Shown here: positions 4,843 through 33,805 of the stretch, piece by piece
Numbering within the stretch: the stretch's first letter is position 1
How the letters are laid out: every line of letters starts with the position of its first letter
NCBI GenBank assembly: GCA_018304385.1
Contig: JAGVWJ010000030.1
Location: forward strand, 1 to 33,805
DNA from: Candidatus Micrarchaeota archaeon
GTDB lineage: Archaea; Micrarchaeota; Micrarchaeia; Anstonellales; Bilamarchaeaceae
DNA length: 33,805 bases
Reading direction: 5' to 3'
The notes under the pieces: model-generated
The model's database searches: none
Seen by the model: only the letters and a program-made list of their open reading frames with translations
Told to the model about the DNA's origin: nothing
Translations under genes and position numbers: made by a program

Positions 4843-5817
4843 TTACTTCTGTGCTAGCATTGTTGGTTTCCCTTTTGGGGCGATGAAATCATAAGAGATT
4901 ATCGCAACTGCGTCAAAAACATGCCCGAGTATATAACGAGTAGCAGATTCTTTTACTATGTGGCCACTAGAGATATGCGCCTGTGCTATCGCCGGCTCAT
5001 TTTCCTGCGAACCTAAATATTCAGATCCTGTATAAAGCGCTACATGTTCAACACGATATGGAATTCCATCCTTCCAAATTAGTTTATCCTTTGTATCGCT
5101 CTCATAAGTCTTTGCCATACTGGGACTTACTCTTTCTAAAAATGCTACAACATCACCTGGATGAGCATTGCTAAAAAAATTTAATACATTTGCAACTCTA
5201 TCACTGCGATTCTTGGGACCACGAAAAATATCTTTTTCTCCAAAAATTGCGTTCCCTTCTCCTCCTTCTAGCGCAGCTTTCAATGTATTCCCAACATTTG
5301 GGTTTAAAACAGCGCCGCCCGCCCTTAATGCATCTACAATAAATGTTGTGCAATCATAGACTTTACTTATTACGTAAATTTCTTTAGCAGTGAATCGCTC
5401 GTCAACTATGGCCAGAGGATGATAGTTATCTGGTAGCAGTGCTTGGGCGCTTTTCACAAGTTCCTTATCATCTACGTTAGTTGGTGCTGGTGCAACAGTT
5501 ACATAATTATTATCAATTCCAGGCCTAGTATAATTTATCACAGAAACTGGAAGTCCCTTGGCCATAGCTTTCATAACCCGTCCATCAGTTGGAACACCAG
5601 CCATATTGCCTTTTTTTATTATAGGAATATCCTCGCCTTCTGGGGTTTTTATGTGATCTAAAATTTTTCCTGGAGCAGTATTCTGTGCAATTATTCTATC
5701 TACTCTTTCAACAACAACAGCACGCTGCGTCTCTCTAAATTCATTATATGATAATAATCGTGACCTTTGCTCAGGTTTTGTTTCTATAGTTGGTTGAACT
5801 TCTTGCTTTTCTACCAT
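4843..5817 (-). CDS. Divergent NlpC/P60-superfamily (papain-like Cys-His) protein
   Basis: ELVKSAQALLPDNY, YDCTTFIVDAL (catalytic Cys), PGDVVAFL, EHVALYTG (catalytic His). No signal peptide. ATG directly follows the TAA of the upstream gene. Confidence 0.6.
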   Translation of the reverse strand: MVEKQEVQPTIETKPEQRSRLLSYNEFRETQRAVVVERVDRIIAQNTAPGKILDHIKTPEGEDIPIIKKGNMAGVPTDGRVMKAMAKGLPVSVINYTRPGIDNNYVTVAPAPTNVDDKELVKSAQALLPDNYHPLAIVDERFTAKEIYVISKVYDCTTFIVDALRAGGAVLNPNVGNTLKAALEGGEGNAIFGEKDIFRGPKNRSDRVANVLNFFSNAHPGDVVAFLERVSPSMAKTYESDTKDKLIWKDGIPYRVEHVALYTGSEYLGSQENEPAIAQAHISSGHIVKESATRYILGHVFDAVAIISYDFIAPKGKPTMLAQK

Positions 5818-21610: not shown

Positions 21611-23863
21611 TTATTTCTCTTTCCCTAATCTTTCTAAAACCGCTTTAACAATCATTGGCCAGGCAATTGTTGCATCTGAATAAACCTCTACTTGTCTGCC
21701 ACCTTCACTAATTGGCACAAATTTACCCCAACTGACACCTTCGGAATATGTACAACCACTATTTGAAACTATTATCCCGTTCGCAGCGAAATTATGGGCA
21801 TCATCTACGGTCATATCATACGTGTCTTCTTCACCGTAATATTCTATAAACATAACAAAATGGTTATCTGGACAATTATTATTGATCCAGCCCCTATTTA
21901 TCCCATAAATTTTCATTCTTTTATTAAAAACTTTAACTGTTATGTCAAGTCTCCTTGCTGCCTTTGTAATTATTCCGTTTTCTTTTACCAACGCATCTTT
22001 TACAGTAGCTTCGCTAATTCCTTTTATCCATCTCCCGTTTTTTTCATTGGAAACTATTGCTGATCGAACCTCTTGTGACAAAGAAAGCCATCTTTTAGCT
22101 GTTGCATTATGGGCATTTTGTAATCTTACTCTTCTTTCTTCCTCGTTAAGAGAATCCCAGTAGTTCTTAGCTATATTTGATCTCCTCAGTCTTTCCTCAT
22201 TTGAACTCAAAGCGTATTCTTTTCTCTTCTCGCATAATTCTTTATATCCCTCTTCACTTAAACCGTCCCAATAGGATCTTGACATTTGTTGCATTAGAAC
22301 TGGATCGCAATTTTCTTTAAGAGCTTGAATTCTCTTTTCTCTAGATTCATCTGATTCAGCAAAGCGATGATACCTAGCATGCTCTGCGAAATCTATAATG
22401 TCCAAATTTTCAATGGAATTATTCAAGGTATTATGATCAATATGGTGGACTGCGTAATTTGATGCCAATACCATTTGTTTCAACTCCTGCATAATAAATC
22501 TATGCTCGGCGATAGTTCTGCTGTTATTCAACCTTATAAATCTATATTCACCATGTTTATCCGCCTTGTAGTAAGAGTTAAATGGCATTAGTCTATCATT
22601 CTCTTTTAATTCAGATAATTTTTTATAAGTACCATCCCTAAGCATAAACTTATGATCTTGAGATGCAATAATTGAGTCGCTTTTAAATTCTCTTTTCCCA
22701 CTAACCCAACCAGAAATCCAACCATAAGTCAACTTATAAAGTTTTTTCTTACCAGTTGACCAAACTTGCCTTACGTTAGACAAAACTATTCTACCTTTTT
22801 GTGTATCATAAGAATAAACTGGAAAATTATATTTACCAACCAGATCTTTTATTGGAATTCCCTCTGGAAAAACTGATAAATCTCGTGGCGTATCTATCTT
22901 AGTATCGCCATGAAGACAAAGCCCCCCAAAATGTGTCGGCTCTGGACAGATGCGAACTGCATACTTAAATTTTTTAACATGGCCATTTCCCTCTTCTTCA
23001 CTAATATGGTATTTCGAATAATCCCCATTATCAATTAATCTCCATCTTATCAGATCAAGATACGGTCCAACCTGCTGCGCCCAATTGCGAGGTACACCCC
23101 CGCCAATAGTAAATATACCCAATGTTTTTGCTTTTAAAACGCGCTCAGTATAATCTTCTAAATCCAAAAACGGATCATAGCTCATATCCTTTCCTTTTTT
23201 TCTAAGCTCTCTTCTTATTAATGCAAGATCCAAGCCAAGCTCGCTATCAGTAAAAGCAGGAATATAAACAGGGACATTTTTATCATATGCTGATTTAAGT
23301 AAACCCCTGCCATTAACATTTTTATGTAAATATTCGCCAAGTTTTTTATTTATTTTATAACTACATGCAACTTCATTAAGGTCCCAACCAAGGATTTGAG
23401 ATTTAAATATTTCATATGCACGATTAAAATTAGTTTCAGGTTCTAGAGTATCATAAACCCGATTATAACCTCTTTTATAAAGTTCCGTATCTTCCATATC
23501 TGGGCGATATTTAAAATGCTCCATACCTGCTGACTCTATAAAACCATGCGCCATTAACGCACCTGTGCTCACAATCGCATCACACATGCCATTATCAATC
23601 ATGTCACAAACCAACAAACCCATCTTTGCAACAGTCATTGCACCAGAAAGTGTAAGCACTTTAAAACAGGATTCGTCTCTTACCATTGTTTCTAGAACAT
23701 CTGCAGCCTCACCTACATTGCGGCCTGCAAAAGCAGTATGACCCATTGCCCTTACTAAATCATCTATTGAGTTTATTTTTTCTAAATCCAAAGGCATTAG
23801 TGGTTCCAAATGATCAGAATGACCAGTTCCTAATTTTCTTAAATGTTTTTCTTTAGTAATCAT
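21611..23863 (-). CDS. Deoxyhypusine synthase-like protein (DHS/homospermidine-synthase superfamily) containing an intein; 364-aa extein
   Basis: TLSGAMT, IVSTGALMAH, NRVYD, PAFTDSELG, IGGGVPRNW, ICPEP..GGL | SGCTYSEGVSWGKF, DATIAWP; GGTG SD. Confidence 0.92.
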   Translation of the reverse strand: MITKEKHLRKLGTGHSDHLEPLMPLDLEKINSIDDLVRAMGHTAFAGRNVGEAADVLETMVRDESCFKVLTLSGAMTVAKMGLLVCDMIDNGMCDAIVSTGALMAHGFIESAGMEHFKYRPDMEDTELYKRGYNRVYDTLEPETNFNRAYEIFKSQILGWDLNEVACSYKINKKLGEYLHKNVNGRGLLKSAYDKNVPVYIPAFTDSELGLDLALIRRELRKKGKDMSYDPFLDLEDYTERVLKAKTLGIFTIGGGVPRNWAQQVGPYLDLIRWRLIDNGDYSKYHISEEEGNGHVKKFKYAVRICPEPTHFGGLCLHGDTKIDTPRDLSVFPEGIPIKDLVGKYNFPVYSYDTQKGRIVLSNVRQVWSTGKKKLYKLTYGWISGWVSGKREFKSDSIIASQDHKFMLRDGTYKKLSELKENDRLMPFNSYYKADKHGEYRFIRLNNSRTIAEHRFIMQELKQMVLASNYAVHHIDHNTLNNSIENLDIIDFAEHARYHRFAESDESREKRIQALKENCDPVLMQQMSRSYWDGLSEEGYKELCEKRKEYALSSNEERLRRSNIAKNYWDSLNEEERRVRLQNAHNATAKRWLSLSQEVRSAIVSNEKNGRWIKGISEATVKDALVKENGIITKAARRLDITVKVFNKRMKIYGINRGWINNNCPDNHFVMFIEYYGEEDTYDMTVDDAHNFAANGIIVSNSGCTYSEGVSWGKFVPISEGGRQVEVYSDATIAWPMIVKAVLERLGKEK
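21761..22918 (-). mobile_element. Intein (386 aa, residues 316-701) with HNH homing endonuclease
   Basis: Starts CLHGDTKIDTP after GGL; block B SQDHKF; block F/G TYDMTVDDAHNFAANGIIVSN followed by +1 Ser. Internal HNH motif AEHRFIM...VHHIDHNTLNNSIENL...EHARYH. Removing it restores GGLSGCTYSEGVSWGK. Confidence 0.92.
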
Positions 23864-23934: not shown

Positions 23935-24645
23935 ATGCGAATTTTATTAATTGATGCGTGTTTTGGGGTTACAACAAATAGGTTATTAGGTGCGCTATTA
24001 GGTTATAAAATAAAAATTAACGAGGTAAAAAATGGAATAAAGAAAATAAATTTTGGTAATACTAAAATAAAATTCGCTGTTAAAAATTACAAAAATGGAA
24101 AAATATTAAAAATTTCCAGTAATGATAAAGCAAAAGAAAGAAAATACCTAGAAATAAAAAATATAATAGAAAAAAGCAAATTAAACAGATCTGTTAAGAA
24201 AAAATTATTGAAAATATATAAAATAATTGCAAAGGCAGAATCAAAAATGCATAAAACAAGCATTGCAAATGTTCATTTTCATGAAATTGGAAAATTGGAT
24301 AATCTCGCAAAGATAGTTACAATTCTAATTGCATTAGAAAAATTAAAAATCAAAAAGATATTCTGTTCAAAGATAAATGTTGGATCTGGATTTGTAAACA
24401 CTGCGCATGGCAAGCTACCCGTGCCTGCACCAGCAACAAAGGAAATTTTAAATATATATAAACTACCATTTTACAAAAGTAAAATAAAAAAAGAATTAGT
24501 CACACCAAGCTCTGCTGCTATTTTGAAAGTAATAGTTGATGAATTTTATTCTGACCACAAGCCACTTGCCACTAGCCACAAGCTAATTAATGGTTATGAA
24601 GAAGAAAATAAATATCCTGTTAAATTACAAATTTTTAACCGCTAG
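23935..24645 (+). CDS. larC: LarC N-terminal domain (nickel insertase), divergent; C-terminal domain absent
   Basis: VHFHEIG, GSGFVNTAHGKLPVPAPAT, ELVTPSSAA. ATG 23935 (MRILLID) matches the usual LarC start. Confidence 0.8.
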   Translation: MRILLIDACFGVTTNRLLGALLGYKIKINEVKNGIKKINFGNTKIKFAVKNYKNGKILKISSNDKAKERKYLEIKNIIEKSKLNRSVKKKLLKIYKIIAKAESKMHKTSIANVHFHEIGKLDNLAKIVTILIALEKLKIKKIFCSKINVGSGFVNTAHGKLPVPAPATKEILNIYKLPFYKSKIKKELVTPSSAAILKVIVDEFYSDHKPLATSHKLINGYEEENKYPVKLQIFNR

Positions 24646-25194
24646 AATCCCTCGATCTGTTTTAAGAAATTGGTAGTTCTCAGATAGATAAAGTTTTTCT
24701 AGCTGGCTGCCACTCTCAAGAATGTAATCTTCTAAACCCCCTTTTGGTAAATCCTCGTTTAAGTAAGATAAAATGTATTTAAAGCCGCTGTTTTTTGCAT
24801 CATCTTCTCTTGTTTTTAATAATATCCTTCTAATACCACGGCCTTCATAAGAAAGCAAAACTGCCGGGTCTTCGACATAAATCGCATTTGCATCTCCGTT
24901 TCTTATTCCTTTTTCATTTTCATCATAATGTGCAGGCCAGGATAGACCTACGCCAATAAGCATACGGTTTACATAGCAACCAAAGCTCATATTATAGTCT
25001 ATAATCATTGCTACTTCCTTGTCAGTAACATCAAAAGAGCATTTTCTCATTACCTTAACTGCCTCTTCTAGGTCATCCCTGCTAAGTTTCTTTATTTCTA
25101 TTTCATCTTCATCTAACATATGTAGAAATTTTTTCTTGGGACCTACATCCTTGACTTCTTTTTTTTCATCCACTTTGAATGTTTCGCCTACCAT
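24625..25194 (-). CDS. GNAT-family acetyltransferase-like protein
   Basis: Motif-A-like VEDPAVLLSYEGRGIRRILL..AKNSG and LYLSENY; GGTG SD. Confidence 0.65.
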   Translation of the reverse strand: MVGETFKVDEKKEVKDVGPKKKFLHMLDEDEIEIKKLSRDDLEEAVKVMRKCSFDVTDKEVAMIIDYNMSFGCYVNRMLIGVGLSWPAHYDENEKGIRNGDANAIYVEDPAVLLSYEGRGIRRILLKTREDDAKNSGFKYILSYLNEDLPKGGLEDYILESGSQLEKLYLSENYQFLKTDRGILAVKNL

Positions 25195-25233: not shown

Positions 25234-25635
25234 TTAAAAAACTCTTCTAATCCATTTTACCTGATCAAAATGACCATCAAATGAGTAAATAGAATTATCT
25301 TCTGTTTCACTCATTGCAGAGACGATCTGGGCATCAGTTAAACCCATCTTATAGATATTAAAGTTTTCTATTGTTTTTTCCCAAAGTATATCTGTTAGAA
25401 ATAATATTTGCAGCTTTGGCAAACTTAAAATTATACTAAGAGTTCTTCTTGCAAAATCTTCGCCTCTTATCTTAAAAAGATGGTTCACTACTTCATGAAC
25501 AATACCAGATGTAACGTAGATAACTTTTATTTCTTGATTCTCTTTTATTGCATTAATAATATTAAATGACTTAGGGTGATGCTTGTCATTGCTATTAAAA
25601 TAACCGATCCAAACATTCGAATCTACAAAAACCAT
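25234..25635 (-). CDS. vapC: PIN-domain (VapC-like) toxin
   Basis: VFVDSNVWIG, IVHEVVNHL, LTDAQIV, IYSFDGHFD. ATG 25635 follows GAGG just after the partner's stop codon. Confidence 0.85.
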   Translation of the reverse strand: MVFVDSNVWIGYFNSNDKHHPKSFNIINAIKENQEIKVIYVTSGIVHEVVNHLFKIRGEDFARRTLSIILSLPKLQILFLTDILWEKTIENFNIYKMGLTDAQIVSAMSETEDNSIYSFDGHFDQVKWIRRVF

Positions 25636-25639
25636 TTCC

Positions 25640-25873
25640 TCACTGATAAATATCAACATCTAGACAATCTATGTCTTTAGGCCCTTTGAAAATTAGCTTC
25701 TCTAGTTTTTCCCATGCCTTAGGGTCTTTTTTAAATCGTAATTTCCCTACTAGAAAATGTTCTTTTATTACCTCATCTGCACTAACCTTTCTTTTTTTCT
25801 CTGCTTGCGCTTGCCCTACTGCCACCATAACCATTTGGTAGGTTGTTTCCGAAACACGTAATGTTTTGTCCAT
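25640..25873 (-). CDS. Putative antitoxin (VapB-like, RHH-type N-terminus)
   Basis: 77 aa directly upstream of the PIN gene; KTLRVSETTY..., DEVIKE; acidic C-terminus. Confidence 0.7.
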   Translation of the reverse strand: MDKTLRVSETTYQMVMVAVGQAQAEKKRKVSADEVIKEHFLVGKLRFKKDPKAWEKLEKLIFKGPKDIDCLDVDIYQ

Positions 25874-25948: not shown

Positions 25949-26287
25949 TTACATAAATCTCGTATTACAAACTGGGCAGCTCGTAAGATACGCTTCAGCT
26001 TGATAACCGCATATAGGACATTGAAAGTAAGTTTTTTTAGCCCTTTCTAATTCAGCCTCAAAGCTGTAATTGCACTTAACACACGCTTTAATATCCAATT
26101 CGTTCAGCTCTTCGCATTTTGGGCATTTTCTACGAAACATACTACCTATGCGCACACCGCATTTCTCGCAGCGTTCCCAAGATAAGTTTACCTGCTCGCC
26201 ACAACCTGGGCATTTCTGCCACTGACCTTTACCACTGCCTGAGCCAGTACCCTTAAGCACACCTTTAAGAAAATCTCCAAGACCCAT
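25949..26287 (-). CDS. Multiple zinc-ribbon (DZR-like) protein with amphipathic N-terminal helix
   Basis: Six CxxC motifs (CPGC, CEKC, CPKC, CVKC, CPIC, CPVC); TAATG overlap with the upstream ATPase. Confidence 0.8.
   Translation of the reverse strand: MGLGDFLKGVLKGTGSGSGKGQWQKCPGCGEQVNLSWERCEKCGVRIGSMFRRKCPKCEELNELDIKACVKCNYSFEAELERAKKTYFQCPICGYQAEAYLTSCPVCNTRFM
26234..26287 (-). repeat. Direct repeat copy A (first 18 codons of the zinc-ribbon gene); partner at 27516..27569
   Basis: 48/54 nt identical to 27516..27569; the first 26 nt are identical. Confidence 0.9.
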
Positions 26288-27441
26288 TATAACATCTTTT
26301 GGAATAATAAATTATCAATTATAAATTCACCAAATAACTTATGGAAAAGTTCGTATTTGCCTCTACCTACCTTTTTTATACAATTTTGCTGCAGAAGTCG
26401 CTTTATCTGCGTACCAATCTGATTAGACGCTTTTCCAACCATTTTTGATATTGTCTTCATTTCTAACGGCTTTTTACTTTTTGCGATTACGTTGAGGATT
26501 TTCTGCTCTTCCGGACTGGTTTTATCTAACATGTCCCTGAATAATTGATCACCAAGTTGTTTCATTATCATTGGTTTCAATACTTCATAATCCAAAAGCG
26601 ATAGTTCTCTCTTGTTTTGTTCAAAAAGCACATAACCAATTGTTTGTACAATATAAGGATGTCCTTGGCTATCATCTATAATTTTATTAATTAATTTCGT
26701 ATTAATATTTCTTTTAACTGTAAGAAATGGTTTCTCAATTGCTTCTTTTACTTCTTCTGGTTTCAGTGGACCTAATGTAACTGGAGTAAAAAATCTTGCA
26801 AGAGGTGAATGTAACTCTTTAATTTGCTTAAAAAGTCCTATTTTACCAGATAAAACAAGTATGTACCCGCAGTTATTTTCTGATAATCTCAAAAACACAT
26901 TTCTTAAGTATTGTAAAGAACCATTTATTTGTTCAAGTTGCTCTGCCTCATCCATCATGATAATTATTGCAGGTATTTTTCCTTTTATTTTGTCCCATAA
27001 CTCCTGAAGTCTATGTCTAAATTCGATTTTTGTCTCTATTGCTTTTTCTTCACGCTGCTCAAATTTTGCAACACCTAAAGAAACTGAGATATTGTATTTT
27101 TGAAAAAAATCTTTAAAGCGTTCAGCACTTTTATCAATTAAAGAATATACAATGCCCGCTCTTTTAATCTCTGCAAGAATTAGTAGCACCAATTCTTCTA
27201 TTGAATTCGTTGCTGGATCAAACTCTACTCTTACTATCAGACATTTCTGAGACTTCGATATATGCCCCAAATAACGTAATAAGGAGGTTTTTCCTATTCC
27301 GCGTTCACCTAAAATGGCTAAATGGTGTGGGTTTCCCTCCTGCGTATTCCTTAGATATTGTTGAAATCTTATTATCTCCTCTTTTCTACCAACAAAATAT
27401 TCAGGCTCAACAATGCCGCCCGGTCTAAAAGGATTTGCCAT
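26287..27441 (-). CDS. Archaeal AAA/STAND-like P-loop ATPase with C-terminal winged helix
   Basis: NPFRPG..PEYFVGRKEE, LGERGIGKTS (Walker A), IIIMMDEAE (Walker B), GHPYIVQ, wHTH-like tail. ATG 27441 with GTGA SD. Confidence 0.85.
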   Translation of the reverse strand: MANPFRPGGIVEPEYFVGRKEEIIRFQQYLRNTQEGNPHHLAILGERGIGKTSLLRYLGHISKSQKCLIVRVEFDPATNSIEELVLLILAEIKRAGIVYSLIDKSAERFKDFFQKYNISVSLGVAKFEQREEKAIETKIEFRHRLQELWDKIKGKIPAIIIMMDEAEQLEQINGSLQYLRNVFLRLSENNCGYILVLSGKIGLFKQIKELHSPLARFFTPVTLGPLKPEEVKEAIEKPFLTVKRNINTKLINKIIDDSQGHPYIVQTIGYVLFEQNKRELSLLDYEVLKPMIMKQLGDQLFRDMLDKTSPEEQKILNVIAKSKKPLEMKTISKMVGKASNQIGTQIKRLLQQNCIKKVGRGKYELFHKLFGEFIIDNLLFQKML

Positions 27442-27493
27442 TAAAATCACATTAAATTTATCATAATTAACTATTTAAACGTTTCTTTGTTAA

Positions 27494-27509
27494 AACAGTT
27501 AAAACTGTT
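27494..27509. promoter_or_regulatory. 7-2-7 palindrome AACAGTT-AA-AACTGTT upstream of the ATPase promoter
   Basis: Lies just after the mini-ORF stop and before a TATA-like TTTAAA (27474-27479). Function unknown. Confidence 0.35.
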
Positions 27510-27512
27510 AAA

Positions 27513-27569
27513 TTAGCTGCTTGAACCCGTACCTTTAAGCACGCCTTTAAGAAAATCTCCAAGACCCAT
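27513..27569 (-). CDS. 18-aa mini-ORF MGLGDFLKGVLKGTGSSS (repeat copy B; truncated duplicate of the zinc-ribbon gene start)
   Basis: ATG 27569, TAA 27515-27513. It has 6 differences from copy A, 5 of them synonymous. Confidence 0.55.
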   Translation of the reverse strand: MGLGDFLKGVLKGTGSSS

Positions 27570-27604
27570 GTTTATCAACTGCCCTCAGCCTTCAGCTTTG
27601 GGCC

Positions 27605-27629
27605 GTGAGCCTCGTTTCGTTTGGCTCAC
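27605..27629. repeat. Hairpin GTGAGCC-N11-GGCTCAC within a GC-rich intergenic element
   Basis: Perfect 7-bp stem read directly from the sequence; nearby repeated GCTCA motifs. Confidence 0.55.
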
Positions 27630-27656
27630 TGCTCATTGCTCAAGGCTCAATGCTTA

Positions 27657-30600
27657 TTATATACGTTCATATCTTCCTGTCATTGGGTTATATCTCATGC
27701 CAGAGGAACCACCAAGAAACTCTGGCTGATCGTACTTGTAATAATTTGTTGGGCTTAGAGTTGGTGATGCTAAATCCTTGGCAAGCGGGTGCCCCGTGTA
27801 TTGCTCTTCTACTGGTGCTGGCTTGTATCCCATGCCTTGGGCCTCAGCCTCAGCTTTATCACGCTCAGCTTTCTCCATTGATTCTTTTATAATTTGAAGT
27901 GGTCCACGGCCAGTTTCAGGATGATCTTCTTTCCTTTTTCTTTCTATTTGCTCTTGTGTTGTTTCTAGTTCATCTCTTTGAACAAAAAGAGAATCATATG
28001 CTGGATTAGAGATAATCTCCGTTTTTAACCTATCAACAATGTCCATTTCCGGTGCTTTACCTGGCTTATAATCCTTAGAAAACTCATCTGCTTTTTGCTC
28101 CAAATTCTGAACCTGCTGCATTAAGCCTTCGTATACTTGGCGTATCTAATTTATCTATTATTACTTGCAGAGCAGGATCCCTTTCTACACGCTTCTCTAA
28201 TTCAGCAACTAACTGCTCCCTAAAAGACCATATAACTCCAGTATCTATACCACTTAGACCAACTTGCTGTGCTGCATTTCCCATGTTTCCAACTGCATCT
28301 AACCCAAATGCCCTAGCACTTAATGCATCTCTATTCTCAGAAGGTGCAGCCATATAATCTTTCCATATTTTTTGCATTTCTTTTGATGCATCTGGAGAAG
28401 ATTCAGTTAATGAGGTACTAACCCCTTTTAAAAGAAGAATAGCGCATCTTGTGGATTTTGCTTGATAAATTCTGCTGTTGCTGCAACCATTTCAAGTCTT
28501 TCAGCATTTTGTTTATCTGTGCCAGGGGTTTGTGCAAGAGTAGTCGCGGCTAGATATAAATCCCGTTCACTAACATTTGGTCGATCTGGAACATCAAGCC
28601 TATTTAAATCAAAGTTTGGATTAGCTGAATATAAGGCAGATTGCATTGTAACTTTCGATATTGCTGTTTCTGCGTATTCAAAAGCCTTTCTGGATTTTTC
28701 CAAAAAGTCATCAAACTTCTTTGGATCAACTTTTTCTGTAGCATCTCCTATTGCGCTAAGAGTAACACCCGTATAAGCAAGAACCTGGGCATGACTCTCA
28801 AGAAGGGATTTCATATTTTTATCTACACTAGGATTACCTTCTAAAAGGGCACCAGTATTATTATATAAAAGATTTGCTGTTATTGCCTGCTGCTCGAACG
28901 CGCGCATGTTAGTTGCATCTTTTCTCAAACCAAGCAATTCGCCTTGCTTATCCCCAAGCGCTCCTCCAACCTCTCCAAAAAGGTTACTATTGCGCGGATC
29001 TGAAAGCATTTTAATAATTTGATCAACCTTCTTCGCTTTTTCATTAGAGTCTCCTTCACCATCTGCAGCAGCCACTGCGCGTTGTAAATCAGCTGCCATT
29101 CCGGTTAGTGTCTTGTCCTTTAATAAATCATGTAAAGCTTCTACAGTATCCTCTTTTCTATCGCCAAGCCCGGACATTTCAGGAGACGAATGAACCTGAA
29201 TAGTAAGCGCTGCAGCGCGCATTGTACTAAGCGCTTCTTGTATTGATGGTGCTAGTGCCTTTTTATCATCATCTGAAAGCGTGTTCCAATCACTGACTTT
29301 TCTACCAGTTAAACCCTTTGCAGCCTCTCCACCTTCTAAAGCAGCTTTACGCTCTTCTTCTGAACTCACAAAATAAAATGTAAGAACAGGCTTACCAGAG
29401 CTATCTACAGTAAGTGCGGCTACTGTTCCTCCTGCTTTTCCTCCTAATTCATCATAAGCTTTATGAAGAGATATTTCAGCAGCTCCATGAACCTTAATGC
29501 CTTCTAATTGCATATGCGCTTCAGCTAAGGCTGCCTTTGCCTCTTCAAACTTAATCAAAGCAGTGTCTCTTTGTTCATCGGTCTTCGCTTTATCTAATTC
29601 TTTTGTCGCATCAACCATATCCTTACTTAATCTTGCCATATCTTCCTCTGTTTTTTTCTTTAAACCATCTAAATTACCTGTTGCTTCTATTGTAGCCTTA
29701 CGCTCATCTGCTAACCTGCTGTCTTGAGCAAGTGTGGCAATGACCGCCTCTGCTTTTTCTGCTTTTTTTTGCGCTGCCTCTAACTCCTTTTCCAATATAT
29801 CTATCTTTTCCTTTGGTGCGCCTTCTTCCTTTGCCTTACCTAATTCCTCTGCTTTGGCAGTTGCCTGATCTCTTTCATCTTTTAAACCATCCATTTTTTG
29901 CTGTACTAAATCAAGCTTGACTTCAAAATTCTTTTGTGCTGTTGCTAAAATTTCTTGTGCACCCTTCAAACTATCTTCAGCATCTCTCAACTGTTTAGTT
30001 GATGTGTCAACAGCACCAGTTGCAGCTTGCACAGTTGCTTCTGTTTGTGTTACGGCCGCAGCTGTTTTTGCAGCGGTTTCCTCTGCTGCAGTTGCCTTTG
30101 CATTCGCTGCCTTTAACTCATTTTCCAATGCTTGTATTTCTGTTTTTGGTGCGCCTTCTTCTTTTGCCTTGGCCAATTCATCTGCCTTTGCAGTTGCCTG
30201 ATCTCGCGCTTCAGTTGCCTGCCCCTCGAATTTTGCTGCGTTTTCCTGCGCCTGTGCCAAGTTTTCCTTAGCCTCTTCTAATTTTTTCTGTCCTTCTTCC
30301 AGATTTATTTTATTTGTTTCTATATTAAGTTGAATTGTTACTACTGCAAGCTCCTGCTTCTTATATTCAAACATTGCCTGTGCTGCGGCTAATTCTGTTT
30401 GTCTTGTACCAAGTACATCTTGTGCTGCTGCCAATTGCTGTTGGGCTTGCCCTAATTGCATCGTAGCTAGATTCAACTGTACCTGTGCTTCTCTTTTCTC
30501 TTCAGCAGAGCAGGCACCTGGCTCATTACAAGCAGCAACTGCTGCCTGCGCGTTAGCTACAGAAGCCTGTGCATTATCTACATTTTGCTGTGCCTTATTT

Positions 30601-31956
30601 TTATCTTCCTCTGCTTTGTCTACTCCAGTCTGCGCTTGCTGCACTTCTCCTCTTGCAGCATTAACCTCTGCTTCCTTTGCATCTTTCTTTTCTTGTGTGG
30701 TTGTATCCTTGTAACCTAGCGCTACTACAACATTCATATCATAATATTTTCTTATTCCAGCCTCAATATCCCCACTTATCTCAATTGCAGTAGCGATAGA
30801 AAATGCTAATCTAGACAATGGAGCAAAAGAAGTAAGATCAAGACCTGCCCTAAGACTACCTAGAAAATCCTTAGCGTCGATAATTTTCATTATTCCCTTA
30901 CCGATGTCAGTTTTATTTTTTAAGAAGTCCAAACCCGCACTTGGCATCTCTTTAACTGTGTTCCAAAGTCTTGATGGCGCTGTCTTAAATAATTGCCCTA
31001 AAGACATTTTAGCAGTTGGACTTGTGCTTTTAAATCCTTTAGTGGCCTTTAAGTTGCCAAATGCCTTCATTGCCGTTCCATATCCAGCACCACTAAGTGC
31101 TGCTGCAAACCCCCCACCTTTTTCTGCATCTTCAGCTCCTAATACAGCCCGTCCACTTTCACTTGTTCCTGCCATGATGCCCTTTGCTAACCCTACTGCT
31201 ATCCCCATAACATCAAATCCAAACCCTCTTCCGCGCGCAGTGTATCTCAAATGTTTGCCAGCTCGGGGTGCAGAAAAATCAAACATACCGAATGGGTTTC
31301 TTCCAGAAAGATGAAGCGCACCCATAAGCAAAGAAAATATAACTACTAGTGGCAGGCAAAATGCAGGCATTACACCTCCTATTGGCGGGGGTGGTGGACA
31401 GTATTTATAACTGGCAAATGCAGATAGAACCTTTGACGGATTTTGTGGATCAACTGGCAGAACAACGCCAGATGCAAGCGGGATGTCTGCAACACCACCA
31501 ATTTCTCCAAGAACAATATATAAATTTATAATCATGGCAGCTGGTTTTATATGCATTAAAATCAAAGTTTGCAATACCTTCATCATTAGTATAAGCTAGT
31601 CTAAGTTCTTCAGTATCATCAGTAGGGTCTTCTTCATCTTCTCCTTTAGATGTTATATGCACCATTACTGGGGCGTTTTGTATTGCAGTACGATCAATAA
31701 CACCAGCAGCAAGAATTATTTCAACAAAAAAATTTCTTTCATTTGCAACTACAAACATCACAGATTCATCATAATCGCTCAAATCCTCGCAAAAAGGTCC
31801 GCACCCTCCTGCCAACCCTCCGGGAATAACACTTAAACCATCTACTGCCAGAGAAGGATCTATCCGACTATCGTCATCATCAATAATAAGCACAGGAATA
31901 TGACTTGTACTAAATGCAAGCGCAATAATAATTAATAATGGTAATAAAATTTTCAT
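27657..31956 (-). pseudogene. Large (~1430 aa if corrected) signal-peptide/TM/long coiled-coil protein broken by three frameshifts (~31512, ~28430, ~28140)
   Basis: ATG 31956 MKILLPLLIIIALAFS. Four overlapping ORFs (31450..31956, 28428..31586, 28084..28377 with frame open back past 28431, 27657..28121 with frame open back to 28145) join with single-base corrections to give 4299 nt. Confidence 0.65.
29812..30204 (-). repeat. Intragenic repeat: 60-nt units at 30145..30204 and 29812..29871 (53/60 identical, offset 333 nt = 111 aa)
   Basis: Encodes RDQATAKADELAKAKEEGAPK and RDQATAKAEELGKAKEEGAPK. Confidence 0.85.
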
Positions 31957-31957
31957 T

Positions 31958-33805
31958 TCATCCGCCTTCAGGTTCTTCTGGAATAAGTTGGCATTCAACC
32001 TTACGGTTTTTAACAGGAGATACGGCACCACATACCCCTGGATTAAAATCACCAATATCATTTATGCCACAATCTTCAAGTGGATCACCAGTTCCAGAAA
32101 ATATAACTGGGCCAACAACTCTGCCTGCAGTTTTTTTCTTAACAAATGTATAATTTCCAGAATCATCATCAAAACAACAAACCTCTGGCTTTGGGATACT
32201 TGATACTATATCTGGAGTGAGTACTGAAAGATCGCTAATATCATAATTGCCATGCAGCTCATCGCCATTCTGATCATAGAATGTGCATGATAAGGCACCT
32301 TCTTTATCTGTGCATTTGGTGCATGGCTCTGGAATAATATCATCAGAACAACCTAAAGTATCAGGATCTGTGAGAGGATCTAAGTCAGCTGGCACAATAC
32401 ATTGTTCTCCATTTGCGCATGCCTTATTACATTTGCCAAGGCTAATATCAATATTTGAACAAGGCTGGCAATACGCTGGGCTTTGTGTATACACTTTAGT
32501 ATAAACCGTAATTGGTTCATCTGCAGCTATCTTTCTTACGCCTTTTTCTAAGGAGCAGAATTGCTCTGATAATTTATAATATGTCTCTGGTGTTCCTGGC
32601 TGATCACCAACACCATCCTCAAGCTCTGAGATATCAGAGTAGATTATTCCAATTAAACCTGATTTTGCCAATTTTTTCTGTCTTGCAAACAAATAGGAAA
32701 ATAAACCTTGCTTTCTTTCCTTACTCCAGCAGCTGCTATCACTATCATCTAATGACATATCACTTATCAAAGAAAGTTTTTGGTTATACTCTGTGATAAC
32801 CGTAGTTGTAAGCCGATTCAGATGTCCCTCTATAAGTGAACCAAGGACAGAAGTACAGTAAGATGGATCTTCATTTGTAAATTCATGAGGAAAAAGTCTA
32901 AATGATATGACATTAACAAGTCTTTCATTAGGATCAAATATCTGTGGTTTATACGCCTTTATTTCTGCCAATGTAGCAAGATCATCATCTATTCTCTCAG
33001 TTCCCATTCTACTGCCTGGTAAGCCATTGCTTACCTTAAATGAATAGATGCATGTTTTACATGACTCTTTAGCATGTTGAAGCCTAGCATATAATTCATC
33101 AATCTCTGGTTTTATAATTGTTGGACTATCTTCTGTACCAATATTTATTTCTTGATGCACTTGTTCAAGGCTTATTGTGTCAACTATAAGTATAGATGGA
33201 CCTCTATCAATGATAGCATCTGCAACATAATCAGCATTATGTCTGATAGTATACCTAACACCAAAAGATTCTCTCTCCTCTGTAGGTACATTCCAATTGC
33301 TGTCATCAGTTGCATCAAATACTGGCAATATGCCTTCTTTTAGATATTGTGCTTGTTTTTCCTGGAGATAAACAGAATCAGGCAGTGTGTTGAAATAATT
33401 TTTAGGGTAAATGTCATCTGGACGGTCTGGATCATCTGCAGAAGGACAAGCCAATCTCTTTGGACCAGTTAGTGTAAGAGAAGGAACTTCAACACAAATT
33501 GTCCCAGCTTCAGTATGTCCGCCTTCACCACCTACTTTTCTATTTGTTATTTTGGTAGTTGGATTATATTCAGTACCTCTAGTTGTTATTATTTGTTTTG
33601 CTAATGTTATATAACTGCATGGCTCGCACCAACCAAATGTTTTTGCCACTGGCATTTTGGTATTTTGGTTATAATCACACACCCCTATCTTATCAGCACC
33701 TGCAGCTGGTGCCTTTATCATTACATAATTTTTAATAATAAGAAAATGCTTGTTATCATCTGAAAGCGCATGACAGTCTCCACCATCTGTTTCTTTAAAG
33801 CCAAA
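31958..33805 (-). CDS. Cys-rich, acidic, probably extracellular protein; 5'-truncated by the window edge
   Basis: The frame is open from 33805 (FGFKETDGGDCHAL...) through to TGA at 31958. Many Cys pairs, especially in the C-terminal third; the next gene's ATG follows 1 nt after the stop. Confidence 0.75.
   Translation of the reverse strand, partial: FGFKETDGGDCHALSDDNKHFLIIKNYVMIKAPAAGADKIGVCDYNQNTKMPVAKTFGWCEPCSYITLAKQIITTRGTEYNPTTKITNRKVGGEGGHTEAGTICVEVPSLTLTGPKRLACPSADDPDRPDDIYPKNYFNTLPDSVYLQEKQAQYLKEGILPVFDATDDSNWNVPTEERESFGVRYTIRHNADYVADAIIDRGPSILIVDTISLEQVHQEINIGTEDSPTIIKPEIDELYARLQHAKESCKTCIYSFKVSNGLPGSRMGTERIDDDLATLAEIKAYKPQIFDPNERLVNVISFRLFPHEFTNEDPSYCTSVLGSLIEGHLNRLTTTVITEYNQKLSLISDMSLDDSDSSCWSKERKQGLFSYLFARQKKLAKSGLIGIIYSDISELEDGVGDQPGTPETYYKLSEQFCSLEKGVRKIAADEPITVYTKVYTQSPAYCQPCSNIDISLGKCNKACANGEQCIVPADLDPLTDPDTLGCSDDIIPEPCTKCTDKEGALSCTFYDQNGDELHGNYDISDLSVLTPDIVSSIPKPEVCCFDDDSGNYTFVKKKTAGRVVGPVIFSGTGDPLEDCGINDIGDFNPGVCGAVSPVKNRKVECQLIPEEPEGG

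Follow-up and report, generated by a model that had tools for sequence, protein, structure and literature searches.

DPANN archaea have small genomes, and the way in which they gain genes is little understood. Among elements that settle at gene ends and bring a replacement for the end with them, e14 and phage 21 insert in the 3' end of icd, and archaeal elements target tRNA genes. Integron cassettes are recognized by their IntI integrase, their attC site and their lack of a promoter. For the SXT/R391 integrative and conjugative elements (ICEs), insertion in the 5' end of prfC is stated in the part of PMC2791158 that cites Hochhut and Waldor (1999). Displacement arrays are represented by the orphan tips of Rhs and contact-dependent inhibition (CDI) loci and by the effector-immunity arrays of the Vibrio type VI secretion system (T6SS) (PMC5361080). 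In this work we describe a locus of Candidatus Micrarchaeota archaeon, a metagenome-assembled genome (MAG) designated G000 below (GenBank GCA_018304385.1), in which an ATPase gene lies between two copies of the start of a zinc-ribbon gene that we call ZnR; the window analyzed is the stretch of 33,805 nt at positions 1 to 33,805 of contig JAGVWJ010000030.1. With a probability of roughly one half, we read the region as a recombination scar left by the acquisition of a horizontally mobile, self-promoted ATPase gene. The locus is known from this one genome and offers six informative substitutions. Its central features, two of which are also conserved in genomes of other genera (G025 and G110), are the following:

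25949–26287, minus strand: ZnR, a triple zinc-ribbon protein of 112 amino acids (aa), Pfam DZR
26234–26287, minus strand: repeat copy 2, the functional codons 1–18 of ZnR, whose ATG overlaps the stop codon of the ATPase gene in TAATG
26287–27441, minus strand: P-loop NTPase of 384 aa (nSTAND1/AAA_16/archaeal ATPase_2 type) with a C-terminal winged-helix-like region, the acquired cargo
27472–27479, minus strand: TTTAAATA, which resembles an archaeal TATA box and is located 30 nt before the start codon of the ATPase gene; also conserved in G025 and G110
27489–27512, minus strand: three direct TTTTAAC-type repeats (TTTAACAG, TTTTAACTG, TTTTAACAA) at the 5' edge of the cassette, conserved at the nucleotide level in G025 and G110
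27513–27569, minus strand: mini open reading frame (mini-ORF) of 18 codons, made up of the displaced start of ZnR (repeat copy 1, 27516–27569) and a TAA from the cassette

Read along the minus strand, the mini-ORF (27569–27513; product MGLGDFLKGVLKGTGSSS, then stop) is followed by an AT-rich spacer of 72 nt, the ATPase gene (27441–26287) and ZnR (26287–25949). Nucleotides 1–54 of ZnR (26287–26234) align without a gap with positions 27569–27516 at 89% identity. The first 26 nt form an exact core, and the differences are found at nt 27, 36, 42, 45, 49 and 54; five of these six are synonymous changes at the third codon position, the remaining one is a Ser/Gly exchange at codon 17, and 17 of the 18 residues are kept. 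The two copies are therefore a mosaic, made up of a perfect 26-mer and then a stretch with about 20% divergence that is nearly all synonymous. This alignment bears out an earlier note on this DNA, made from its letters alone, which had described just such a duplicated start with its 6 nt differences. The genome-wide search for more copies that the note had called for was also run, and it returned only the two already known: the 26-mer has two matches in the window (as compared to none in 100 shuffles) and the same two in the whole 1.53-Mb, 65-contig assembly. A protein search picks up the relic at E = 3.7e-4, and no further ORF in the genome begins with the start motif MG[LIVF]x[DENQ]hh[KRG].

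ZnR itself is a conserved gene of the lineage: a single copy was found in 35 of the 36 genomes from the family to which G000 belongs, and most of the order has the gene as well. All of its named database relatives are from Micrarchaeota; a search of 5.8 billion sequences gave no protein closer than 76% identity, and the ZnR of G002, which like G001 belongs to the same genus as G000, is 77% identical. The protein is laid out as an N-terminal amphipathic helix (hydrophobic moment 0.63 for residues 3–13), a flexible Gly/Ser linker and three CxxC...CxxC ribbons, and in the AlphaFold2 (AF2) model the helix occupies residues 4–11 and a low-confidence linker residues 12–21, followed by the ribbons. 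Among the relatives, the N-terminal MG is invariant and precedes an amphipathic L/I-x-D/E-h-h-K pattern; the Gly/Ser linker is variable. Judging from the boundaries in the model, an 18-aa product would equal the helix plus most of the linker.

The ZnR loci of 20 relatives from the Micrarchaeota were then compared. A 587-aa protein, a giant envelope protein, ZnR and a GNAT-like gene recur there in this order, with only 1 and 23 nt between the end of the giant gene and the ZnR ATG in G001 and G002, respectively. An ATPase gene upstream of ZnR was found in none of the 20 loci, those of G001 and G002 included, and none of the ATPase matches across the family lies at a ZnR locus. ZnR directly abuts the GNAT-like gene in 15 of the 20, without the VapB/PIN gene pair that separates the two in G000. 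These empty sites identify the ATPase gene and, separately, the VapBC pair as insertions private to G000. It follows that the ATPase and ZnR are no native functional pair, since they co-occur in none of the relatives. The native neighbors and the second insertion are placed in G000 as listed here:

24625–25194, minus strand: GNAT-like gene, native downstream neighbor of ZnR
25234–25873, minus strand: VapB-like gene (25640–25873) and PIN/VapC gene (25234–25659), the second private insertion, between ZnR and the GNAT-like gene
27570–27656, minus strand: GC-rich hairpin of 87 nt built of 7-nt repeats, with an NNTGAGC arm and a complementary arm; 12 nt separate its end from the ATG of the mini-ORF
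27657–32061, minus strand: giant envelope-protein gene, native upstream neighbor of ZnR, recognized by blastx against the single-ORF giants of G001 and G002

It is the mini-ORF that retains the native flank, i.e., the tail of the giant gene and the hairpin-ATG element, and the functional ZnR that has lost the hairpin-ATG context. The edges of the insertion could be located by comparison with the two closest ATPase homologs. The 80 nt before the ATPase ATG align at the nucleotide level in G000, G025 and G110 and contain the repeats, TTTAAATA and a short leader; counterparts of the repeats and box before the orthologs are at L103:10860-10940 and L102:10530-10614, so that three genera are represented. 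In G000 this conserved block begins immediately after nt 54 of ZnR. The TAA of the mini-ORF belongs to a TAATTT(T)AA(A)C motif common to the G025 cassette, which means that the stop is cassette DNA and that the junction determines how long the mini-ORF is. Toward the opposite edge, the ATPases of G000, G025 and G110 diverge past an LFGEF motif, and this divergence places the right junction within the ~30 nt that precede the start codon of ZnR. The GC content of the cassette is 0.32, versus 0.43 for ZnR and 0.365 for the genome. The "palindrome" reported in the earlier note upstream of the ATPase does correspond to real repeats, but these are two of the three direct TTTTAAC repeats of the ATPase's own conserved upstream region. 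The three repeats are probably an operator and may serve the winged-helix tail of the ATPase itself (autoregulation); TTTAAATA would be the promoter.

The ATPase resembles NTPases of the nSTAND1, AAA_16 and ATPase_2 types in its Pfam scores, which exceed the cut-offs (nSTAND1, PF20703, 52 bits versus 27.1; AAA_16, PF13191, 49.5 bits versus 32.6), in the Walker A and Walker B motifs read in its translation (GERGIGKTS and IIIMMDEAE) and in its winged-helix-like tail, where weak CasR, Csa3 and RuvB_C helix-turn-helix (HTH) matches were obtained. Unlike nSTAND1-type systems, it has no effector domain or partner gene conserved with it. The gene is mobile, as evidenced by its distribution: the closest ATPases, at 69% (G110) and 64% (G025) identity, are from other genera, the next matches (45–48%) are from Deltaproteobacteria and metagenome contigs, and only paralogs of 29–34% identity were found in its own genus. 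A phage collection contained no match, and plasmids contained only relatives of 22–25% identity. The 69% homolog in G110 sits inside a 6.7-kb segment bounded by a 145-nt direct repeat (87% identical), with a tyrosine integrase just outside copy 2, and in the genus of G025 the M50 neighbor of the cassette there is not set in a conserved gene order. Family members that are more distant lie beside tyrosine integrases, in variable neighborhoods that are mobile-element-like or defense-like (integrase, AIPR, HNH), the order being tRNA-Glu, integrase, ATPase in G013 (L100, G013:C3, 3387-6194) and tRNA-His, integrase, ATPase, AIPR in G078 (L101, G078:C44, 8723-13030).

Several side observations were made on these relatives. 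The module of tRNA gene, tyrosine integrase and ATPase recurs, AIPR being an abortive-infection protein in G078, and it has the appearance of a micrarchaeal integrative element; the locus DNA examined did not contain attR copies of the tRNA 3' ends. The G013 integrase gave a weak C-terminal double-zinc-ribbon match. In G110, the two copies of the repeat, at 5420-5565 and 12100-12245 of L102 (G110:C28), are strongly structured (fold z −6.6), with no Rfam match and no tRNA call, and the segment that they bound contains radical-SAM-like, carbamoyltransferase-like and TrmB genes in addition to the ATPase homolog.

How these data could be joined into one sequence of events is as follows. The starting point is the native arrangement of giant envelope gene, ZnR and GNAT. 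A 1.2-kb unit, comprising the three TTTTAAC repeats, the TATA box and the ATPase gene, is set directly after codon 18 of ZnR in G000 alone. ZnR is still intact because a second copy of codons 1–18 follows the ATPase gene and overlaps its stop. The upstream copy would be the displaced original start, which kept its hairpin-ATG initiation context and now runs into the stop supplied by the cassette. The ATPase promoter probably now drives transcription of ZnR, translation of which is probably coupled through TAATG, and ZnR expression would have changed with it. Most likely, the two copies represent alleles that had diverged in the full-length ZnR genes of two related genomes, the donor allele being the postulated partner, and they would have been joined by recombination anchored in their common 26-nt identity. 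Two routes may be envisaged: homology-facilitated illegitimate recombination (HFIR) with DNA of a related strain in which the cassette already preceded ZnR, for which the Vibrio arrays offer an analog, or integration of a small circle in the Campbell manner, with SXT in prfC and e14 and phage 21 in icd as analogs.

The substitution pattern is the principal argument for two alleles, in that a perfect 26-mer next to mostly synonymous divergence fits alleles that diverged under purifying selection and recombined through an identical stretch. If both copies had drifted neutrally, the probability of at least five synonymous changes out of six would be 0.005–0.009, and the probability that all six fall in the distal 28 nt (nt 27–54) is 0.02. 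When the locus is held against what is expected of HFIR, the 26-nt anchor is present and the allele-like substitutions fit; no donor was found, and microhomology at the joint is not clear. To our knowledge, HFIR has not been shown in DPANN archaea. The first of the two models in the earlier note, a cassette-insertion hotspot that restores its target gene, is upheld in part: the insertion bracketed by a duplicated gene start stands, with 20 empty loci behind it, the allele-like pattern probably stands, and the hotspot with swapping cargo finds no support, as no other cargo or repeat was found at the ZnR site in the relatives examined.

A number of observations weigh against the scar reading and should be considered together. 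No donor or strain-level relative was present in any of the collections searched, which leaves the idea of a second allele to rest on six substitutions; likewise, no metagenome or genome contig collection contained a match to a degenerate nucleotide pattern of codons 1–13. If only the relic was free of constraint, the probability of at least five synonymous changes out of six rises to ~0.04 (an estimate made by hand, not computed by a tool). The intact ATG, the frame and the good initiation context of the mini-ORF are also expected of a functional peptide. Neither inverted repeats at the cassette ends nor terminal inverted repeats flanking it were detected, and a ZnR-like segment is absent from the close ATPase homologs in G025 and G110. 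There is no integrase or transposase, and no tyrosine or serine recombinase, within 5 kb, and the sole PF00589 match of the MAG, which is 89% complete, lies on contig C15; no transposase domain was found in the neighboring ORFs, in agreement with the earlier note, which had reported that integrases and transposases are lacking.

Compared with the described systems, the locus resembles gene-end integrative elements in that the insert is flanked by imperfect direct repeats that partly copy the target gene, the target is left intact, the displaced end persists as a stub with mostly synonymous differences, relatives have empty sites, and distant relatives of the ATPase adjoin tyrosine integrases and tRNA genes. 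It is unlike them in having no integrase here or nearby, a cargo of a single 1.2-kb gene, a DPANN host, and close cassette homologs without a ZnR-like att segment. Of the hallmarks of an att-type integrative element, the direct repeats copying the target and the empty site are both seen, and the recombinase gene is missing. The resemblance to HFIR and displacement arrays lies in incoming DNA that would be anchored by one short homologous stretch and joined illegitimately at its other end, and in a resident copy of a conserved segment that was pushed aside and persists as a fragment. Unlike such arrays, the part displaced is the 5' end of a small housekeeping-like gene rather than the 3' tip of a toxin gene, and a single event is seen with no array. 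With integron cassettes the locus shares a single-gene unit at a defined site; it differs in having no IntI or attC, in its own promoter, and in flanking repeats that are host gene sequence.

Among the alternatives, the one that survives best is a scar of duplication in situ, which we consider unlikely. Here, an illegitimate or replication-based event would have duplicated 54 bp, possibly with ~10 nt more upstream, the copies would have diverged in place, the relic would be non-functional, and gene conversion would have kept the first 26 nt identical. This account draws on the same empty sites and edges and requires no donor; the sequences before both ATGs are weakly similar at TTGATAA, a hint that the repeat may reach past the ATG, and ample time has passed since the lineage parted from that of G002, the ZnR of which is as divergent as stated above. 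What it has difficulty in explaining is that five of six differences are synonymous and that all six are in the distal half, for which both luck and a conversion tract are needed; moreover, a 54-bp target duplication is atypical of known insertion mechanisms.

Somewhat less credible is a functional 18-aa peptide, i.e., a free copy of the amphipathic ZnR helix that acts as a decoy, a membrane-active peptide or a leader ORF and whose sequence is kept by selection, as proposed in the second model of the earlier note. Its ATG, frame and native hairpin-ATG initiation context are intact, 17 of 18 residues are kept despite five synonymous changes, and the predicted helix lies within the peptide together with the greater part of the flexible linker, with the hydrophobic moment given above. 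Comparison lends it no support, because the mini-ORF, or a second match to the ZnR start, was found in none of 60 relatives searched with the ZnR protein, nor is the mini-ORF present upstream of the ATPase homologs in G025 and G110. The stop codon is junction cassette DNA, so that the insertion sets the length of the peptide, and the sample amounts to six substitutions. In addition, the ATPase has its own conserved promoter, and a leader role for the peptide is not needed. The comparison across related MAGs suggested in the earlier note, for different cargo between the repeats or for conservation of the mini-ORF, turned up neither, and all 20 sites were empty.

We regard as improbable an integrase-less, self-promoted cassette that homes by means of a gene-start mimic and host homologous recombination, re-wires its target, and leaves an 18-aa decoy of the ZnR helix at a giant envelope complex. 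Several points count against a dedicated homing cassette, namely the lack of an integrase, of a ZnR mimic in the close homologs and of a donor. About as improbable is an assembly artefact, in which a chimeric contig of two co-occurring strains would create the apparent duplication. The MAG does consist of 65 contigs and the two copies do resemble two alleles, but the junction AGCAGC|TAATTTAAC would need a strain that already carried a ZnR-like segment upstream of the cassette, a shared k-mer being insufficient, and the exact repeat is just 26 nt, with copies that are distinct and not collapsed. The relic is very improbably the remnant of a second ZnR paralog that was mostly deleted or overwritten on arrival of the ATPase. 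A few relatives (G007, G028 and G057) do have two ZnR copies, and a relic elsewhere in G000, described below, is best explained in this way; yet the same-genus genomes have one ZnR, the paralogs of other genera are on different contigs and not in tandem, and the relic occupies the exact native position after the giant gene. An insertion sequence or transposon (no transposase, no terminal inverted repeats, an atypical 54-nt duplication) and an integron cassette (no integrase, a cassette with its own conserved TATA region) were rejected.

G000 was also examined for other insertions bracketed by duplicated gene ends. The closest parallel is a 77-nt relic of the 3' end of an aquaporin (MIP) gene, C12:21692-21768 versus 22568-22644 (L089), with 83% identity and 2 amino-acid changes in 25 codons, so that its differences are mostly synonymous; the 250-aa ORF upstream of it had no counterpart in five relatives. 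As G002 has two MIP genes, this relic is probably what is left of a lost paralog. The remaining candidates are repeats of promoters or terminators, or paralogs in tandem, and gene-end bracketing as a general mechanism in G000 was rejected. Two further repeats were noted. A perfect 99-nt direct repeat, C20:58052-58150 versus 59107-59205 (L091), has one copy within the 5' portion of a gene resembling M23 peptidases, and the second copy lies 94 nt beyond the stop codon of that gene; the repeat could have arisen by recent duplication or in the assembly. Repeats of 47 nt that contain a hairpin and are 91% identical, C19:22973-23019 versus 24349-24395 (L093), bracket a Schlafen/AlbA_2 + HATPase_c_4 gene just after scpB, which is possibly another single-gene insertion.

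The giant gene is a single ORF in G001 (1787 aa) and G002 (1264 aa) and is broken in G000 into four ORFs, 31450-32061, 28428-31586, 28084-28377 and 27657-28121, which encode 203, 1052, 97 and 154 aa in alternating frames. Its N-terminal parts match the relatives with a frame change near 31505, and the tail at 27785-27681 matches residues 1735-1770 of the G001 protein. The split could reflect a pseudogene, programmed frameshifts or MAG errors, and it may be relevant to the expression of ZnR, which is normally the next gene of that operon. As for the VapBC pair (GC 0.32), the PIN domain was identified with E = 3.7e-10 and the 77-aa ORF upstream overlaps the PIN gene by 20 nt, the arrangement expected of a type II VapBC system; the VapB-like antitoxin had no family match, and no flanking repeats were found around this insertion.

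The hairpin upstream of the mini-ORF belongs to a family in its own right. The region 27430-27665 folds with a dG of −66.8 (z −4.1), and an nhmmer search of the 1.53-Mb genome found 117 loci, of which 29 are full length. Among the full-length elements, 21 have an ORF of at least 60 aa that begins at or within ~30 nt of the 3' end of the element, usually at the closing ATG. The units are arranged as three to five copies of NNTGAGC, a short loop and complementary GGCTCAN/GGCCCAN units, and the element ends in ...GGCAG, 6–12 nt and the ATG. Other examples in G000 are C11:11991-12088, C26:17332-17430, C61:10589-10692, C16:31410-31509, C43:1924-2028, C52:18507-18596, C36:2364-2450 and C12:37141-37244, with others besides. 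A strict pattern gave 25 matches in G000, 1–6 in each of G002, G009 and G015, and 0 in 37 other relatives; no Rfam match was obtained. The family may be a MITE-like (miniature inverted-repeat transposable element) or REP-like (repetitive extragenic palindromic) sequence, or an element of translation or processing. The mini-ORF is an exception among the hairpin-associated ORFs because its gene was severed after 18 codons. The family is possibly more novel than the ATPase/mini-ORF finding and may deserve more attention.

For the biology of these archaea, the locus provides a base-level example of a promoter-bearing NTPase gene inserted inside the start of a core gene, which was rescued by a duplicated start and, as far as can be judged, re-wired to the promoter of the newcomer. 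It also carries a caution, in that a mini-ORF with mostly synonymous differences can be a scar of allelic recombination and not a selected peptide. If the second-allele reading is true, the locus would document short-homology recombination between related Micrarchaeota.

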